A stretch of DNA of 64,000 bases, taken from IMG/VR virus record IMGVR_UViG_3300008113_000084, positions 1 to 64,000 of that record. One strand, written 5' to 3'. This document shows, piece after piece, positions 1-22,815 of the stretch; positions within the stretch are counted from its first letter, which is position 1; the number at the start of each line of letters is the position of its first letter. The position numbers and the translations under genes were made by a program. The notes below the pieces were generated by a model, which saw nothing but the letters and a program-made list of their open reading frames with translations, searched no databases and had not been told where the DNA came from. This DNA comes from a virus.

Positions 1-3000
1 GCTTGTACCACCGACGTGAAGGTTGCTGCCTGTCTCGTAAACAACGCTGTTGCCTGCGCCAGTCGTGCTGGTGAATTTGGCCAGGTAGTTTGTCGTACCG
101 CTAAGAGTACCTGGACCTGTAGAACCAGTTACGCCTGTGGCACCTGTTACACCTGTAACACCAGTAGCCCCAGTAACACCTGTAGGTCCTGTAGCGCCTG
201 TGGCTCCTGTTACACCAGTTGTACCAGTAACGCCTGTGACGCCTGTTGTGCCTGTCGCGCCGTTGGGGCCAGACGGGCCAGTCGTGCCAGTTACGCCAGT
301 GGCTCCTGTGGCTCCTTGAGGACCTGTAACTCCAGTAGCGCCTGTGACACCAGTTGTACCTGTAGCCCCTTGAGGCCCAGTAACGCCTGTCTGGCCAGTT
401 ACGCCTGTAGCGCCTGTTGCGCCAGTAGCTCCTTTTATACCCGTTGCGCCTGTTGCTCCAGTTACGCCTGTGACACCAGTCGCACCGACTGCACCTGTTA
501 CACCTGTAACGCCAGTGACACCAGTTGCGCCAGTTGCGCCAGTTACACCGGTCGCGCCGGTTACGCCTGTGTTACCAGTTACGCCCGTAGCTCCTGTGGC
601 ACCAGTGATACCGGTAGCCCCAGTAACACCTGTAGCGCCAGTAGCTCCTGTTACACCAGTAACGCCGGTTGCACCAGATACGCCTGTCGCACCTGTTGCT
701 CCGATGTCGCCAGTTCTGCTGAATCCAAACTGATAGTTGTTTGCGTTGGTAGGTATTGTGCCAGAGACGTAGGAAACAGGAATCTTGTAATAGCCTGTGG
801 CTACGGTTACTGCACCTGTAATCCTGAATACGTTGACTACAGTGTCAGCTGTGCTGTTAGCCGCTATAACCAAGTAACCCTTGGTGCTATTGGTCGAGTC
901 ATCCCAGGTGTCGTACCAACCTGTCTGAGTGTTGCCCAGGGCGTCTAGGTTGTCGATGAATATGTTTGTGACGGAAGCCATCGTACCGCTGCTATAGCGG
1001 AAGATGCCGTTGCCTGGGTCCGAGTCTGTAGTTGTAGTGCTGAACTGATACTTAACGCCACCACGATCACCAGTTACACCAGTAGCACCAGATACACCTG
1101 TTGCCCCAGTTACACCAGTAGCTCCAGTAACACCAGTAGCGCCAACAGCTCCTGTGATACCTGTAGCGCCTGTGACGCCAGTTGCTCCGCTTGCTCCTGT
1201 TACACCAGTAGCGCCTGTGGCTCCTGTAGCGCCAGACGCTCCAGTTGCACCAGTGACACCTGTTACACCTTGTGAACCAGTAGAGCCAGTTACACCTGTA
1301 GCGCCTGTTGCACCTTGAGGTCCAGACGGCCCAGTGTTACCAGTTACGCCAGTAGCGCCTGTGGCTCCTTGAGGTCCGGTTACGCCTGTTGTGCCTGTTA
1401 CACCAGTATTACCAGTAACACCTGTAGCGCCAGTTACACCAGTTGCACCAGCTGCGCCTACAGCACCGTCAAGGTTAACTGTCCAGCTAGCGTGAGTACC
1501 AGAGCCTACGAAGGCATCCTTCGTGAATATCAATGAGCCTGTGCCAGAGTTGTAGCTGCTGACTGTGCCTTCTTGGTAGTTAGATACAGAGTTAGCTACA
1601 ACAATCGTCTGGCCTACCGAATAAGCCAAACCTGTTCCAACAGTTATTGTTTGAGAACCGCCTGTACCAATCGTGAAGCTGGTAGAGCTGGAAGTCAGGT
1701 ACTTGTCACCAGCTGTACCTGTTACACCAGTTACACCTGTGGCACCAGTTACACCTGTAGCACCGGTTACACCTGTGGCACCAGTAGCACCAGTAATACC
1801 TGTAGCGCCTGTTACACCGGTAGACCCTGTAGCTCCAGTGACGCCAGTAGCGCCGGTTACTCCTGTAACACCGGTAGCTCCAGTTGCGCCCGTTACACCA
1901 GTTGTTCCAGTAACCCCTGTATTACCAGTTACGCCCGTAGCGCCTGTGGCTCCAGTTACACCGGTCGCTCCTGTTACACCAGTTGCACCAGTAGCTCCTG
2001 TAATACCCGTTGCGCCTGTAACACCCGTTTGACCAGTTACACCTGTAGCTCCAGTAGCCCCAGTTACACCAGTAGCGCCAGTTACACCGGCTGGGCCAGT
2101 AGCGCCCGTTGTGCCAGTAGCGCCAGTAGCACCAGTGACACCTGTAGCTCCCGTAGCGCCTGTAGCGCCTGTAATACCTGTGGCACCAGTTACACCTGTA
2201 ACACCCGTCGCGCCTACTGCTCCGGTTACGCCTGTGGTCCCTGTAACACCAGTAGCGCCAGTTGCGCCCGTTACACCTGTAGCTCCGGTAACACCTGTCT
2301 GACCCGTTACACCAGTTGCTCCAACTGCGCCTGTAATACCTGTGGCACCGGTTACGCCAGTTGTACCTGTCGCACCCGTAGCTCCCTGAATACCCGTCAC
2401 ACCAGTAACACCGGTTTGGCCTGTTTGGCCAGTGACGCCAGTTACTCCTGTAGCTCCGGTAGCGCCTGTGACACCGGTTGTACCAGTGACGCCGGTGACA
2501 CCAACAGGACCAGTAACACCAGTAATGCCTGTTACACCAGTAGCCCCAGTAGCGCCGGTTACGCCTGTGGCTCCTGTAACTCCTGTAATGCCTGTTGAAC
2601 CAGTCGCGCCCGTCTGGCCTGTGACACCAGTTGCACCAGTCGCCCCAGTAGCGCCAGTGACGCCAGTAGCACCAGTGACGCCAGTAGCTCCAGTAGCCCC
2701 AGTAACACCAGTGGTCCCTGTAGCTCCAGTAGCACCGGTAACACCAGTAGCACCTGTAACCCCAGTGGCCCCAGTAACTCCTGTGACACCTGTAACGCCC
2801 GTAACACCTGTGACTCCAGTCTGTCCTGTGACACCTGTGGCTCCTATCACGCCCGTGACGCCGGTAGCGCCAGTAGCACCTGTGACGCCTGTTGCACCGG
2901 TTACACCAGTAACGCCAGTAACACCTGTGACACCTGTTGAACCAGCAGACGAGCCGCCAATTGGTGTGAGGACATGGCTGACGTAGCAAGCGCCACTATG

Positions 3001-4752
3001 CGTGAAGTAAATATTCACGTTTGTGGGCGAGTTCGTCCTGGCTACGGCTTTGATGAGCAGACGATCATTTACTGAGATAGGCGTGTCTGAAGCGTAGTAC
3101 TGGTTAAACGAGTAAAGCTTGACGCTGGTTGAGTCGAGAACAGGGCTGCTCGCTTCAAAAAGGAATGTGCGCGTGTTGTCTTGGCTGAGTATGTAAACCC
3201 TGAAGTCAACGTACGAGTAGTAAGCCAGGTTGCTGACGTACAAGTAAACATTGAACAGCCAATTACCAGCAGGAATCACCGAAGTGCCTGGCTGGTTAAT
3301 CTTGCTGACGTAACCGTTGATCAGAGCAACAGGATTGAAGTCCTCGTCCAAATAGCTGGACGATGCCGAATTAAACGAGCTGGACTGATTGACTGTCGCG
3401 TAGCTTACGGAGTTGTCAGCTGTGTCTGTAAGAACATCCAGCGTGTTGAAGTTGGCGTCGTAGGTCTGTGGAGTTCCAGACGGAGGAGCGCCGCAGTCTT
3501 CTGGCGCAGGCGTGGTGGTTGTTGTTGTCGTTGTGGTCGTGGTTGTTGTGGTAGTGGTGGTTGTCGTTGTGGTCGTGGTTGTAGCAGGCTCTGTGAACGA
3601 GGTCTCTGTACTCGTGATAGCCGTCCAGTAAGAGCCGTTCTGTGGAAGAGTAGGAAGCGTAGACTGGCTGAAAGGGCCTATAGAGTTTGAATAGAAAGCT
3701 TGCTTTGATCCACCGCCGACTATGACCAAAAGGTCGTTTGCGGCAGCATACGCGCCGTCGCTGGGAGCAGCCTGCCCTGGAAGGCTATAATTGTCAAAAA
3801 GCCAATCGTCGCCAATGCCGTCTGTGGAGTAGATAAGGCCGTGCTCGTTGAAAGCGTAGGCCAAAAAGTTATATTCAAGGTATGTCAGATTAGCCCAAGA
3901 GCCTACGCCTGGGCTGTTAAACAGTTTGGTCCAGGTTACTAAATCAGAAGACCTGTAAACATCTCCGTTTTGCTTGAGCAGAGTAAAGTCGGAGTTGCCG
4001 TAAACTATCGAACTACCGTAGCTGACCGCAGGCAGGGTGTATACCGTCCAAGTCACACCGTCGTTTACAGAAGCGTAAACCTTGTTGTTACCGTCAAGAA
4101 CAACAAGAGTAGCTTCTCCAGGAGTTTCTGATTGTCCGTAGCTTGAACTTGCGCTTTCTGGGTTAACGTAGCCAAATGTTATATCGTACGGCGCGTAGTA
4201 GGAGCTGCCTGTGAGCGTGCTGGCTGTCCAGCTTATGCCGTTACTTGACGAGTAAACCTGGTTGCTTCCAGGACCAATTACCCAGAATTTACCGTTTAAA
4301 AACCTAACGGCTCTCCAGTTTCCTACGGCAGGTAACTGTCGCTGCGTCCAGTTTTTACCGTCTAGAGACGTGGCGTAGTAATTAGTGCTTTGAGCTATAG
4401 CGACGAATATGCCGTTACCAAAAGCTACGTCTACCCAGAGCCTTACGTCTGGAAGAGTTCCCTGTTCCCAGTTGATACCGTCGTAGCTTCTGGCGGATAC
4501 AGCAGAGTTTACAGCTACGGTAACAAACAACGCTGGAGAAGTGTTCGGCGTGAACACAGGCTCCTGAGTTGTGGTGGTTGTAGTTGACGAAGTGCTAGAG
4601 CTGGTGCTAGAGCTGGTGCTGGAGCTGGAAGTTGTAGTGGTCGGGTCTGGGGGAATGTCTCCGCCAGTTCCTCCTGCTTTTACTTCAAACAAATTGTCTA
4701 GGCTAGCTTCTGTAGCTTTTTTCGATGTTCTGTTCTTGCGTGACCTAGCCAA
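1..4752 (-). CDS. Collagen-like fibre/adhesin protein with Asp-box beta-propeller (partial, runs off left edge, >1584 aa)
   Basis: Translated by hand from TTG at 4752 (SD-like AGAGGG upstream): [12 protein letters not shown] leader, Ser/Thr linker, Asp-box repeats ([29 protein letters not shown]), 24-Thr tract, IPAGNW domain, then G-X-T collagen blocks separated by globular domains. No stop seen before position 1. Confidence 0.9.
3511..3582 (-). repeat. Poly-threonine tract (24 ACN codons) in fibre protein
   Basis: Read directly; 72 nt of in-frame Thr codons with varied third positions. Confidence 0.9.
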
Positions 4753-22163: not shown

Positions 22164-22815
22164 CGCAGGTAATCCTTTTCAAATCGAGCTTATGCCTTCT
22201 AGTGGATATGGCTATTTCTCTAAACTGGACATCGAAACTTTTACGGCCGTTAGTCAAAGCCGTCAAGTCTGAAAACTGTTTATCGTATTTCGTTCCGCCG
22301 TCTATGCCTAATAGCGTTATGTTCTTTACACCAGACGAGGCTAAAAGATTGACAACAGCCACGCTGGAAAAATAGCGAACATACACAGTTCTGCCTATAT
22401 CTCTTCGCTTACACAAATGACCTAGATGGCTGGACCTGTAGGTCAGCAACCTGTTTTGCTTGAATAGGTGCCTAAAAAGCTCATGGTGAGGTTTATCTTT
22501 GCTGGACACAAGTGCGTCAGTTGACAAGTCAGAGTTGGCTTTATTATTACTGTGCAGAAAATAAGGAGTGACAAGTGTAACTGAACTGTTTGTGAGCCTG
22601 TCGGAAATCCTGTCAAAAACGTCTAGGTCAGCTACGTGTACGTAATCAACGCCGTCAATTTTGTTGACGGCGTGATTCAAGGCTATCGAGTTGTATTTGC
22701 GCAGATCAAACGAGGCTATCTTGCTGAACGAGGGACCTTTGCCGACGACAAGCCAGGGCTTTGTTTTTACCCTGGGAGCGACATTGGCCGCAAAGCCTGG
22801 AACAGCCTGCATCAA
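22156..22815 (-). CDS. Maf/DUF115-like protein, second paralogue
   Basis: LVVGKGPSF, IALN, GVKNITLLGIDG. Confidence 0.65.
   Translation of the reverse strand: MMQAVPGFAANVAPRVKTKPWLVVGKGPSFSKIASFDLRKYNSIALNHAVNKIDGVDYVHVADLDVFDRISDRLTNSSVTLVTPYFLHSNNKANSDLSTDALVSSKDKPHHELFRHLFKQNRLLTYRSSHLGHLCKRRDIGRTVYVRYFSSVAVVNLLASSGVKNITLLGIDGGTKYDKQFSDLTALTNGRKSFDVQFREIAISTRRHKLDLKRITCDD

Follow-up and report, generated by a model that had tools for sequence, protein, structure and literature searches.

The window analysed here was a stretch of 64,000 nucleotides from an uncultured freshwater phage with a genome of about 190 kb (IMG/VR record IMGVR_UViG_3300008113_000084; G000 below), which was compared with its closest relative G001 (L003) and with G002, G005, G006 and G008. 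It contained a portal gene, a 9-kb island of sugar-building enzymes behind it and three collagen-like fibre genes. All features described below lie on the minus strand, and the fibre, island and portal genes were positioned as in the initial annotation. The portal protein (22812-24713), previously called probable, was confirmed by tblastn against the portal annotated in Salmonella phage Arash and against Vibrio phages including D69 (27-29% identity, E values of 4e-58 to 3e-60), and its homologues occurred at 43-95% identity in at least 15 IMG/VR contigs. The gaps from the portal to the cupin gene ranged from -83 to +58 nt, with 4-nt overlaps being the most common, in agreement with the tight coupling claimed for the cluster. 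The junction of the portal gene with the first island gene had been described as ATGA, but it reads GGT-TGA-TG, an overlap of TTGA or TGATG. A strong hairpin with a T8 tract (25662-25700), read from the sequence after the upstream gene, is the likely 5' boundary of a transcription unit running from p267 through the portal and the island to the fibres. Between 4000 and 23900, no terminator-like sites were detected in the gaps between genes, and site counts equalled those of shuffled sequence.

All three fibre genes matched the Pfam Collagen family: fibA (1044 aa, 6254-9388, 4e-111), fibB (487 aa, 4777-6240, 7e-42) and fibC (more than 1584 aa, 1-4752, 4e-107). The last of these runs off the contig end, and its homologue in G001 has 2032 aa. 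Counted in runs of at least six, the three proteins held 588 G-X-Y triplets, with Thr at Y in 544 (92.5%) and mostly Ala or Val at X. The blocks of fibA (8093-9244, 6914-7642 and 6320-6679; Thr in 237 of 249 triplets) were set apart by globular domains of 150 and 78 aa. A likeness of its central domain to BclA_C/C1q was a lead from the ESM Atlas only, and Pfam and PDB sequence searches gave no confirmation. A globular N-domain of 204 aa and a single block (4837-5628; Thr in 85 of 88 triplets) made up fibB. Besides three blocks (1702-2943, 1054-1467 and 109-711; 251 triplets, 88% Thr at Y), fibC carried an N-terminal Ser/Thr run of 25 residues (4567-4641), a linker of 24 consecutive Thr residues (3511-3582) and an Asp-box-like repeat region. 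The description of the fibres as almost entirely G-X-T with poly-Thr and Ser/Thr linkers was thus borne out. Windows with at least 26 Ser/Thr per 30 residues were confined to fibre-module proteins in G000, G001, G002 and G006, and no protein outside the fibre module had Ser/Thr-rich tracts in G001, G002 or G006.

The fibres lie downstream of the island, as had been described, but do not follow it directly, since about 4.4 kb with four genes intervenes. Two of these genes are of the homing-endonuclease type, EndoVII (12822-13448; Endonuclease_7, 1e-16) and HNH (13459-13824; HNH, 8e-7), and are inserted between the island and the gene for p1036. Among the relatives, only the nearest, G001, carried EndoVII, and HNH was also present in the G002 clade and missing from the 66% clade. 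The large Gln/Ala/Pro-rich protein p1036 (1036 aa, 9881-12991, with ATG at 12970 as the likely start) matched phrog_1375 at its N-terminus (9e-7) and had a hydrophobic C-terminal segment (KD19 of 1.62 at residue 957). In the distant relatives L284-L286, its N-terminal motif adjoins the island. The fourth gene, p95 (95 aa, 9457-9744), had no family match and occupied the same position upstream of the fibres in the G002 clade, at 72% identity.

None of the island enzymes contained a hydrophobic (membrane) segment. The cupin (133 aa, 13843-14244) was verified by a Cupin_2 match of 3e-8, and its match to the WbuC family was weak (0.0023); it was kept in G001, G005 and G006 and missing in G002. The small proteins p97 and p125 (14255-14928), without a family match, were conserved in G001 and G002. 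KdsB, a CMP-Kdo synthetase (14925-15653; PF02348, 1.4e-45), was upheld by scores above both NCBIfam cut-offs (NF003952, 236 bits against 193; TIGR00466, 166 against 155), compared with only 35 bits for the PseF profile. It was confined to G000 and G001, and its nearest named cellular homologues were from Planctomycetota MAGs, at 46-47% identity.

Five glycosyltransferases had been claimed, of which four are solid and one is probable. GT4, with a GT-B fold (15650-16729; Glycos_transf_1, 2e-12), GT2a, with a GT-A fold (16741-17364; Glycos_transf_2, 2e-8), and GT2b all passed the Pfam cut-offs. A GT4 gene after the portal was conserved in G001, G002 and G005, and GT2a was found in every relative examined. 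The fourth, p252 (21405-22163), was assigned by AlphaFold2 (pLDDT 88.5, pTM 0.89) and Foldseek as a GT8-fold retaining glycosyltransferase of the glycogenin/WbbM/UGGT-like type, with matches of 4e-9 to 1e-7 (WbbM 4e-9, glycogenin 3e-8) and a DAD motif. The fifth, p265 (20611-21408), is a probable GT-A-like nucleotide-sugar transferase, and is graded lower because its GT-A likeness is a lead from the ESM Atlas only. There, its nearest named clusters were Glyco_transf_8/Nucleotid_trans, and its structure resembled the N-domain of viral MptE-like and Methyltransf_24 fusion proteins (TM 0.8); Pfam, PHROG, NCBIfam and PDB sequence searches gave no match. The small proteins p70 and p71 (20215-20614) had no significant family match. 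As for the two methyltransferases claimed, MT24 (17674-18849; SAM-dependent, Methyltransf_24, 2e-12) passed the cut-off, and MT23 (19596-20213; Methyltransf_23, 7e-4), restricted to G000 and G001, fell below it and is a probable class I methyltransferase.

The two proteins called Maf/DUF115-like differed in support. Maf2 (18908-19678, with ATG at 19606 as the likely start) matched PF01973 (3e-11; 43.7 bits against a cut-off of 34.6) and phrog_4603 (6e-13). Maf1 (22156-22815), which overlaps the portal stop codon, failed the PF01973 cut-off (0.0076, 16.5 bits; phrog_4603, 0.0016) but is distantly paralogous to Maf2 (26% identity, E value of 5e-5). The Maf2 model was of low confidence (pLDDT 66), and Foldseek matched it to MptE (2e-4), CstII (5e-4) and the Maf structure 5mu5 (2e-3). 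Maf2 is a candidate CMP-sugar transferase. Its family comprised 1637 representatives, and fused members carried GT4, RgpF, CST-I and FkbM/methyltransferase domains; in G005, Maf2 and MT24 form one fused protein. The label Maf was too specific, because these are short stand-alone MptE/CstII-like domains and the fused relatives are not of the flagellin type.

MT24 has a Pro/Glu linker and then a tail of some 130 residues that is read from the -1 frame of GT2b, the dual-coding stretch being 17674-18105. At the level of sequence, this overlap is conserved: the tail frame had no stops over 107-125 codons in nine sequences (alignment A5), compared with 8-11 stops per 100 codons in the same frame of neighbouring genes. 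The open frame of GT2b (17361-18161; Glycos_transf_2, 4e-5) was matched from profile position 26; its first canonical start is TTG at 18050, and the GT-A N-terminus (IVIPTYN) lies upstream of it. Elsewhere, GT2b-like domains were C-terminal modules of longer multi-glycosyltransferase proteins. A candidate +1 ribosomal slip site, T-TTC (18102-18105; TTT in the MT24 frame, TTC in the GT2b frame), was conserved in eight relatives, and in the L004 clade it was replaced by GAGG-N7-ATG in the GT2b frame. Contigs from four independent studies had no indels in the region, and a +1 frameshift probably joins MT24 to GT2b.

Judged from the genome comparison, the portal-proximal island was already present in the ancestor of a wider group of phages of 180-190 kb. 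The initial annotation had proposed looking for the cluster together with G-X-T fibres in related phages, and this pairing did not hold. The island was retained in G005 and G008, both with Gly-X-Gln collagen, and in G006, where collagen was looked for and undetected; G002 kept Gly-X-Thr fibres without Maf1, Maf2, the GT8-fold enzyme, p265, the cupin and KdsB. A second cluster of GT2, GT4 and methyltransferase genes came immediately behind the fibre genes of G001 and G002, so that in G001 the fibres are sandwiched between this cluster (GT2 of 290 aa, a fused GT4-GT2-MT24 protein of 821 aa, GT2-TPR and GT2 of 240 aa) and the island. In the rearranged, distant G006, it adjoined a mucin-like protein, and G005 had neither this cluster nor poly-Ser/Thr or Gly-X-Thr. 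Over these four genomes only, the second cluster is seen to track poly-Ser/Thr fibre proteins better than the island does. Its expected place in the source genome is past the end of the contig, outside the window. Among unrelated viral contigs, enrichment of PF00535 beside Gly-X-Thr genes was not significant (7/146, against 3/133 for Gly-X-Gln/Lys genes; Fisher p of 0.34). In five related genomes, three of them at least 90% complete, no initiating phosphoglycosyltransferase (PF02397/PF00953), WaaA, KdsA or thymidylate-synthase-like hydroxymethylase was found. A ThyX was the only gene of thymidylate-synthase type that was found.

With a probability of about 0.5, the island is part of a phage-encoded, cytoplasmic, stepwise O-glycosylation system, whose acceptors are most likely the phage's own Ser/Thr-rich fibres, namely the Gly-X-Thr collagen stalks and poly-Ser/Thr linkers. 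Of the proposal in the initial annotation, O-glycosylation of the phage's own fibres is the best-supported reading, and the specific pairing of the island with Gly-X-Thr collagen is not borne out. This reading is favoured because the enzymes are soluble and lie inside the portal-to-fibre transcription unit, because the five genomes lack a lipid-carrier initiation enzyme, WaaA and a DNA hydroxymethylase, and because extreme poly-Ser/Thr is confined to fibre-module proteins. The island genes would be expressed late, together with the structural genes. GT-A enzymes would begin the glycan on Thr/Ser, and GT4, GT8-fold and GT-A enzymes would extend it. The two MptE/CstII-like proteins might then attach an ulosonic acid, in the simplest case Kdo with CMP-Kdo as donor; relatives would draw CMP-Kdo from the host pool, and the phage KdsB would supply it in greater amount here. 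The methyltransferases would O-methylate sugars. The arrangement suggests a division of labour, in which the initiating enzymes would more likely come from the fibre-proximal cluster of G001, G002 and G006, and the older, more widespread island may elaborate the same glycan or also serve another conserved acceptor.

The main rival, which we consider rather unlikely, is that the island remodels envelope glycans of the host (LPS core, O-chain or capsule) during infection, acting on lipid-linked intermediates of the host on the inner side of the membrane, for instance as a bar to superinfection or to keep progeny from sticking to debris; the fibres would then be unrelated neighbours. Genes of this kind in cyanophages and pelagiphages are usually read in this way (PMC12801897, PMC7029224). 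KdsB, HldE and a GT9-like enzyme supply and use both inner-core sugars of LPS, and core and O-chain assembly uses the GT4, GT8 and GT2 families, so this enzyme set, which is also that of LPS core assembly, counts against the fibre reading. The same applies to the retention of the island whatever the fibre type, and the domains fused to Maf2 relatives (RgpF, GT4, CST-I, FkbM) are of the polysaccharide-synthesis type. However, these enzymes have no membrane segments, genes for an initiating transferase, a flippase-type function and WaaA are lacking, and translation of the island is coupled to that of the portal gene within the structural gene string. Moreover, glycosyltransferase clusters flank the G001 fibre genes on both sides, and the second cluster stays with poly-Ser/Thr proteins through genome rearrangement. 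It can also be reasoned that LPS synthesis during a lytic cycle would renew little of the existing surface.

The presence of the island throughout the group while the fibre type varies would fit glycosylation of another shared virion part (capsid, decoration, neck or p1036), with the second cluster alone, the only one to co-vary with poly-Ser/Thr, serving the fibres. In distant relatives, the island still adjoins a p1036 homologue away from the portal, and capsid and tail-tube subunits are glycosylated in mycobacteriophages, according to work cited in PMC12619734. This explanation is quite improbable, as the Ser/Thr-rich tracts are limited to the fibre module, p1036 is not Ser/Thr-rich and no acceptor motif can be named. 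Glycosylation of phage DNA in evasion of restriction is the classical role of phage glycosyltransferases, and multi-glycosyltransferase DNA glycan systems are among the work cited in the same source. It is very improbable here, as the five genomes gave no thymidylate-synthase-like pyrimidine hydroxymethylase and the only thymidylate-synthase-type gene found was a ThyX. In addition, KdsB, MptE-like, GT8 and GT9 enzymes and sugar methyltransferases are not known from DNA modification.

For O-glycosylation of the fibres, Clostridioides difficile offers a direct precedent, which also favours this reading: the GT-A enzyme SgtA, whose gene lies beside bclA3, places O-GlcNAc on Thr in the Gly-Pro-Thr repeats of BclA3 (PMC7157674), and the GT-A enzymes of the phage might start the glycan likewise. 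Further precedents are Mimivirus L230 and the Kdo genes of CroV (PMC9614988), and the galactosyl-Thr collagen of Riftia (PMC10141479). The glycan, if present, would make the triple helices, which lack proline, stiffer and more stable, and it would shield the fibres or tune them. That the coat contains Kdo is plausible, and the glycan may be methylated and may mimic host LPS. Unlike flagellin glycosylation systems, the fused relatives of Maf2 have domain partners typical of polysaccharide assembly.

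The three fibre genes of the window matched Pfam Collagen, and the Gly-X-Thr fibres described in the initial annotation were correctly recognized. All genes of this finding are on the minus strand, the fibre genes being fibA (6254-9388, E 4e-111), fibB (4777-6240, E 7e-42) and fibC (1-4752, E 4e-107), which runs off the end of the contig. Together, they encode 588 Gly-X-Y triplets, with Thr at Y in 544 and mostly Ala or Val at X. Furthermore, fibC contains runs of 24 Thr (T24) and of 25 Ser/Thr residues. For the globular domain in the centre of fibA (7619-8116, residues 425-590), a feature search of the ESM Atlas scored 0.94-0.97 against BclA_C/C1q clusters, which come from collagen-like proteins of Bacillota. 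The domain gave no Pfam match to BclA_C/C1q at E 0.01 and no PDB sequence match; a BclA_C/C1q-like domain is only a language-model lead. Coding runs of six Gly-[Ala/Val]-Thr triplets were found in more than 119 IMG/VR contigs, giant-virus bins included, so the repeat type itself is common.

The fibres belong to an 89,381-bp linear virus contig (G000), of which the window is the first 64 kb; it was 43% complete by CheckV, and a terminal repeat was absent. Because the contig begins within fibC, the genome is broken at this point, and repeats are probably the cause of the break. The 633-aa portal protein (22812-24713) showed 27-29% identity over 76% of its length (E 4e-58 to 3e-60) to the protein annotated as portal in Salmonella phage Arash and to Vibrio phages of 181-188 kb. 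The closer relatives in IMG/VR were genomes of 186-192 kb. Four relatives were compared, namely G001 (portal identity 95%, collinear with the contig), G002 (82%), G005 (66%) and G006 (43%, genome 86% complete). All sampled words of the 9-kb sugar-enzyme island behind the portal (13843-22815) were recovered in contigs from 20 lake or freshwater metagenome runs of 10 studies (2019-2024), which indicates that the phage is widespread and stable. In four of the runs, the region 17300-19000 differed by one substitution only (17584 C>G). No RNA run was listed among those carrying the island, and next to none of its words were present in two metatranscriptome studies, results with no bearing on expression either way. 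The nearest named cellular homologues of the island's KdsB were from Planctomycetota MAGs (Gemmataceae, Sedimentisphaerales; 46-47% identity), and Planctomycetota may be the host phylum, which is a weak lead. The "moraphage" lineage was ruled out as the identity of the phage: those phages exceed 200 kb and infect Bacteroidota, and the paper includes neither collagen nor Kdo (PMC12619734). Elsewhere in the window, the gene at 30572-31603 encodes a thymidylate synthase of the ThyX type, extended at its N-terminus by about 125 aa, and a PDB sequence search with the 232-aa ORF at 32168-32866 gave nothing usable.

Behind the portal gene, the order was Maf1, p252, p265, two small ORFs, MT23, Maf2, MT24, GT2b, GT2a, GT4, KdsB, two small ORFs and a cupin gene, and most junctions from portal to cupin were overlaps of 4-8 nt. 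The portal had been described as coupled to the island by ATGA; the junction with Maf1 is in fact a TTGA or TGATG overlap. Nor do the fibres follow the island directly, since about 4.4 kb lie between them, with genes for two homing endonucleases and for proteins of 1036 and 95 aa. The Endonuclease VII and HNH genes (12822-13824), between the island and the 1036-aa gene, vary in presence among relatives, which suggests recent insertions. Upstream, a strong perfect hairpin with T8 and then TTAGCTAT (25662-25700) ends the preceding gene, and an AT-rich stretch (25600-25660) precedes p267, the gene upstream of the portal. These two sites are the probable boundary and start of a portal-island-fibre unit. 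From 25662-25700 down to the fibres, no terminator-like site was found in the intergenic gaps, and a scan of 4000-23900 for sigma-70 promoters and terminators gave counts no higher than in shuffled sequence, hence no operon sub-structure from the scan. The layout fits, without proving, one late unit running from p267 through portal and island to the fibres.

The gene at 14925-15653 was identified as KdsB, the predicted maker of CMP-Kdo from Kdo and CTP. It scored 165.9 bits with TIGR00466 (cut-off 155.2) and 235.9 bits with NF003952 (cut-off 193), PF02348 (CTP_transf_3 fold) was covered over 1-217 of 217, and the PseF model was far lower (35.5 bits). Pfam cut-offs were passed by GT4, GT2a, GT2b, MT24 and the MptE-like Maf2, and Maf1 and MT23 stayed below theirs. 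For p252, no sequence-family match was found and PF01501 was not matched. Its predicted structure (pLDDT 88.5) matched WbbM (Foldseek 3.8e-9), glycogenin (2.6e-8), the GT8 protein 3tzt (5e-8) and also UGGT, and it carries an invariant D77-A78-D79 (DxD motif). Accordingly, p252 was modelled as a GT-A fold of the GT8 type (glycogenin/LgtC type). A GT-A-like fold for p265 is only an ESM Atlas lead: its sequence gave no match among longer proteins, and the PDB sequence search returned nothing usable. None of the island enzymes had a hydrophobic segment.

Further sugar genes lie outside the island. A full-length HldE with PfkB and adenylyltransferase domains is encoded at 54198-55655 (minus strand; 353 bits with the HldE model, which has a cut-off of 521), and among the four relatives compared it was full-length only in G001 and G002. 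Thus, both LPS inner-core sugar donors would be boosted by the phage, through KdsB and HldE. A GT9-like protein of 672 aa, in which the GT9 heptosyltransferase domain is partial, is encoded at 87143-89161 of the genome (L282 3143-5161) and was kept in all four of these relatives (G001, G002, G005 and G006). It matched LPS heptosyltransferase models only, and weakly (36 bits versus 135). Its identity as a TibC/Aah (BAHT) relative was rejected, as neither the BAHT model nor a TibC chain was matched at E 0.001 or E 1, and a PDB sequence search gave nothing usable.

Of the "two Maf/DUF115-like proteins" in the initial annotation, the MptE-like domain was confirmed for Maf2 (PF01973, 43.7 bits, cut-off 34.6), and the Maf identity was not. 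Maf1, a distant paralogue of Maf2, reached only 16.5 bits. Maf1 and Maf2 are single-domain proteins of 219 and 256 aa compared with the roughly 600-aa, three-domain Maf, and the NCBIfam model FlagModPseD gave 15.7 bits against a cut-off of 670. Their neighbours are portal, glycosyltransferase and fibre genes, and the sole cytidylyltransferase of KdsB's fold is KdsB itself, so that these genes gave no sign of flagellin or of a Pse/Leg nonulosonic-acid pathway. The lack of the three-domain architecture, of a flagellin context and of a match to the curated model ruled out a Maf flagellin glycosyltransferase. The Maf2 model (pLDDT 66) gave weak structural matches to archaeal MptE, the sialyltransferase CstII and Maf 5mu5 (TM 0.34-0.40). 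The CstII match (Foldseek E 5e-4, TM 0.37-0.40) was on this pLDDT-66 model, and the MptE kinase was equally good. The PDB sequence search with Maf2 returned nothing usable, the match obtained being a His-tag artefact. A profile of Maf2 matched 1637 representative proteins, most of them stand-alone and about 240 aa long. In the fused relatives the domain was joined to GT4, RgpF, CST-I, FkbM or Methyltransf_23, and in G005 Maf2 was fused to MT24. In the G005 clade, Maf2-MT24 is one 637-aa ORF (L012/L014 14684-16594; G005 111850-113763). Maf1 and Maf2 are best called MptE/CstII-like putative glycosyltransferases habitually paired with sugar methyltransferases. Because KdsB is adjacent and no other Kdo transferase family is present, we infer that they use CMP-Kdo; relatives lacking KdsB would then need the host pool.

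MT24 and GT2b are encoded in an unusual manner. The MT24 ORF extends for about 130 codons over the 5' half of GT2b, in a different frame (17674-18161, minus strand), and the GT-A N-terminus of GT2b (IVIPTYN) is encoded ahead of the first canonical start codon, in the frame +1 to MT24. In the window, no ATG, GTG or TTG occurs between the preceding stop (18164-18162) and the PTYN motif of GT2b. Across GT2b, each of the nine diverged sequences had 107-125 codons without a stop in the MT24 frame, and the same relative frame of neighbouring genes had 8-11 stops per 100 codons (p ~4e-5 per sequence), so the overlap is maintained. At T-TTC (18105-18102) both frames read Phe, and the site is conserved in nine sequences (the window and eight relatives); in the L004 clade, the sole clade without it, the GT2b frame has a start of its own (GAGG-N7-ATG). 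No indels were present at the slip site in contigs from four studies. As in prfB, the conserved slip codon allows P-site re-pairing in +1 and the downstream frame has no start of its own. A prfB-like slow or stop A-site codon was absent, the next 0-frame codons being CGT, CAA, CCC or CCA. Moreover, an SD-like GGAG(G/A) lies 3-4 nt upstream only in the loci L007, L009 and L011, and about 17 nt upstream in the window. Because the classical stimulators are only partly present, a programmed +1 frameshift giving an MT24-GT2b fusion is graded as probable. Among the longer proteins searched with GT2b, its domain was a C-terminal module of multi-glycosyltransferase proteins, and no in-frame MT24-GT2b fusion was found. 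In the G005 clade, a +1 shift would yield a three-domain Maf2-MT24-GT2b protein.

The island had been proposed to be dedicated to the Gly-X-Thr collagen, and its co-occurrence with fibre type across relatives gave no support to this view. The core MT24-GT2b-GT2a-GT4 was found behind the portal in 14 of 14 loci covering the region. Maf1, the GT8-type gene, Maf2 and the cupin were present in G001 and the 66% clade and absent from the G002 clade, and despite this loss the fibres of G002 are still of the Gly-X-Thr type (76-89% Thr). In G005 the island is almost complete, yet the 2418-aa collagen protein of this genome is of the type Gly-X-Gln/Lys with much Tyr. The distant relatives G006-G010 carry a variant island (cupin, Maf1, GT8, p265, Maf2, MT24, GT2a) away from the portal; among them, G008 has Gly-X-Gln collagen (83% Gln), and no Collagen match at all was found in the 86% complete G006. 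KdsB, p265 next to MT23, and the HldE-type boosters are, as judged by comparing the genomes, recent additions in the G000/G001 lineage. The neighbourhood of collagen genes was also compared in unrelated viral contigs, using ORFs of 170 aa or more at distances of up to 6 kb (Gly-[AV]-Thr, 44 contigs and 146 non-redundant ORFs; Gly-X-[Gln/Lys], 38 contigs and 133 ORFs). Glycos_transf_2 (PF00535) was the commonest Pfam family beside Gly-[AV]-Thr genes (7/146, with Glyco_tranf_2_4 at 4 and Glycos_transf_1 at 2), compared with 3/133 beside Gly-X-[Gln/Lys] genes (Fisher p 0.34). An enrichment of glycosyltransferases beside Gly-X-Thr genes is suggestive at most.

A second, fibre-proximal cluster followed the fibres more closely. 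In whole-genome scans, extreme Ser/Thr tracts (at least 26 Ser/Thr in 30 residues) were confined to fibre-module proteins; G000, G001, G002 and G006 had such tracts, and G005 had none. Within the fibre block of G001 (61.4-79.2 kb) are four collagen genes, genes for two proteins with ConA-like lectin domains, and one for a protein of 322 aa opening with more than 30 Ser/Thr. The ConA-like pair (lectin/glucanase superfamily, Laminin_G_3) is encoded inside the block at L323 353-2421 (G001 72353-74424) and possibly provides glycan-binding, receptor-recognition parts of the fibres. Directly after this block lies the second cluster (L323, that is G001 72001-90000, at 7168-15157), composed of a 290-aa GT2, an 821-aa GT4-GT2-Methyltransf_24 fusion and a GT2-TPR protein, with two unknown proteins, a 240-aa GT2 and a weak MT24-like protein making up the rest. 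In G002 (~122.4-126.8 kb), the genes for the 290-aa and 240-aa GT2 and the fusion protein directly adjoin poly-Ser/Thr and fibre genes. G006, which has no collagen gene, encodes a 781-aa mucin-like protein (91777-94119, L307) of Cys-containing modules joined by poly-Ser/Thr linkers, adjoining genes of the tail-fibre/baseplate module; in this rearranged genome, the second-cluster genes (~89.8-91.4 kb) stay beside the poly-Ser/Thr gene, and the GT9-like gene is next door as well. The GT2 pair and the fusion are missing from G005, which has no poly-Ser/Thr proteins. The GT2 gene closest to fibA in the window lies about 7.4 kb upstream of it, compared with a GT2 directly after the fibre block in G001 and G002; the second cluster of G000 would fall beyond contig position 1. 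The co-variation of this cluster with poly-Ser/Thr proteins, seen in four genomes only, is the best comparative evidence for fibre glycosylation.

Taken as an overall mechanism, O-glycosylation by the phage of its own Ser/Thr-rich fibre proteins is the most likely, with a probability of about 0.5. The genes would be expressed late and the enzymes would act in the cytoplasm, where GT-A enzymes would start O-glycans on Thr/Ser of the fibre proteins, as does SgtA of C. difficile. The glycan would be extended by GT4, GT8 and GT-A enzymes, receive Kdo from the MptE/CstII-like enzymes and have its sugars capped by the methyltransferases; it would stabilise the proline-free helices and shield the fibres. 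In a secondary source (PMC10141479), galactosyl-Thr is reported to stabilise the helix of Riftia cuticle collagen. The main rival, remodelling of host envelope glycans by the island, is how such genes are usually interpreted for cyanophages and pelagiphages (PMC12801897, PMC7029224). The boosting of both inner-core donors is compatible both with an inner-core-like fibre glycan and with enzymes that act on the LPS of the host. The polyprenol-phosphate initiating transferase (PF02397, PF00953), a WaaA-type Kdo transferase and KdsA were all absent from G000, G001, G002, G005 and G006, so a self-contained lipid-linked pathway is lacking in these genomes; like the lack of hydrophobic segments in the enzymes, this favours a protein acceptor in the cytoplasm. 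The envelope reading is considered unlikely. The comparison of relatives also carries a caution, namely that the island which stands out as the neighbour of the fibres is not what co-varies with them. A reading in which the island serves another conserved virion acceptor, leaving the fibres to the second cluster, is regarded as distinctly improbable. DNA modification by the island enzymes was rejected as the main reading and is very improbable: a thymidylate-synthase-like hydroxymethylase was absent from the same five genomes, which makes DNA glycosylation unlikely.

Fibre O-glycosylation can also be put in a more specific form, which is quite doubtful when all of its parts are held together. 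A methylated glycan of the LPS inner-core sugars Kdo and heptose would be built directly on Ser/Thr of the tail fibres. The host pools of CMP-Kdo and ADP-heptose would be drawn on, boosted by KdsB and HldE of the lineage, and the short MptE/CstII-like proteins would form a new Kdo transferase family for protein-linked glycans. In addition, the GT9-like protein would be a protein-directed heptosyltransferase unrelated to TibC, and one enzyme would arise by the conserved +1 frameshift from an overprinted methyltransferase gene.

To our knowledge, phage-encoded glycosylation of virions has been demonstrated in mycobacteriophages only. Where glycosyltransferase clusters occur in phages of Gram-negative hosts, the routine interpretation is modification of the host surface or of DNA. 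The present phage group is a rich test case, with hundreds of potential Thr acceptors per fibre chain, mucin-like linkers, bracketing glycosyltransferase clusters, and Kdo and heptose boosters. If the fibres are glycosylated, the stabilisation of proline-free Gly-X-Thr helices would be explained, new families of protein-directed transferases would be added, and the modelling of receptor binding and of immune or grazer recognition of such phages would change.

Several known systems resemble the one proposed here. In C. difficile, the GT-A enzyme SgtA is encoded beside bclA3 and places an O-linked sugar on Thr of Gly-Pro-Thr repeats in the cytoplasm of the producing cell (PMC7157674), and the BclA glycan is described as capped by a methylated sugar, anthrose (PMC6222408). 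Like BclA3 and BclA of Bacillus anthracis, the phage proteins are collagen-like surface fibres with Thr at the third triplet position (544/588). However, X is Ala or Val in the phage and Pro in the BclA systems, the carrier would be a virion rather than a spore, and the predicted enzymes form a much larger set, Gram-negative in type (KdsB, HldE, GT9, MptE-like). According to the citation of Freeman et al. 2023 in PMC12619734, phage-encoded glycosyltransferases of mycobacteriophages, some with methyltransferases, O-glycosylate the phages' own structural proteins. The acceptors described for these phages of Actinobacteria are C-terminal extensions of capsid and tail-tube subunits, whereas the candidate acceptors here are collagen-like and mucin-like fibres and the sugar genes are of Gram-negative type.

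Comparable glycan systems are known from giant viruses. Mimivirus L230 is a collagen-glycosylating enzyme found alongside virus-encoded collagen-like proteins, and the Kdo gene sets of CroV and Fadolivirus place CMP-Kdo synthesis beside glycosyltransferases and sugar methyltransferases, the CroV glycan being putative (PMC9614988). Unlike the phage, these viruses have eukaryotic hosts; L230 targets hydroxylysine rather than Thr, and CroV has the whole Kdo pathway, whereas the phage has KdsB without KdsA. Cyanophage S-SCSM2R carries kdsA, kdsB and 13 glycosyltransferases, termed a "cell-wall synthesis and modification" set (PMC12801897), and pelagimyophages have glycosyltransferases beside tail-fibre genes (PMC7029224). 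These are likewise large phages of aquatic Gram-negative hosts; they carry kdsB or genes of the rfaE(hldE) type together with numerous glycosyltransferase genes, in many cases close to the tail-fibre genes. The authors of both papers proposed modification of the host surface or of DNA, without a link to Ser/Thr-rich fibres; in contrast, the clusters here bracket Gly-X-Thr and poly-Ser/Thr fibre genes. With Maf and GT42 (CstII), the Maf-like proteins would share the MptE-like central fold, to judge from the weak structural matches, and they lie beside a CMP-ulosonic-acid synthetase, but their putative donor, CMP-Kdo, is not established for the MptE/CstII fold. The kind of system is thus known or proposed, in viruses glycosylating their own collagen-like or structural proteins (mycobacteriophages, Mimivirus) and in the bacterial BclA/SgtA parallel. 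The new features are a set of sugar genes of Gram-negative type (KdsB, HldE, GT9-like, MptE-like), the position of two clusters on either side of Gly-X-Thr and mucin-like fibre genes, and the probable recoding of MT24 and GT2b.
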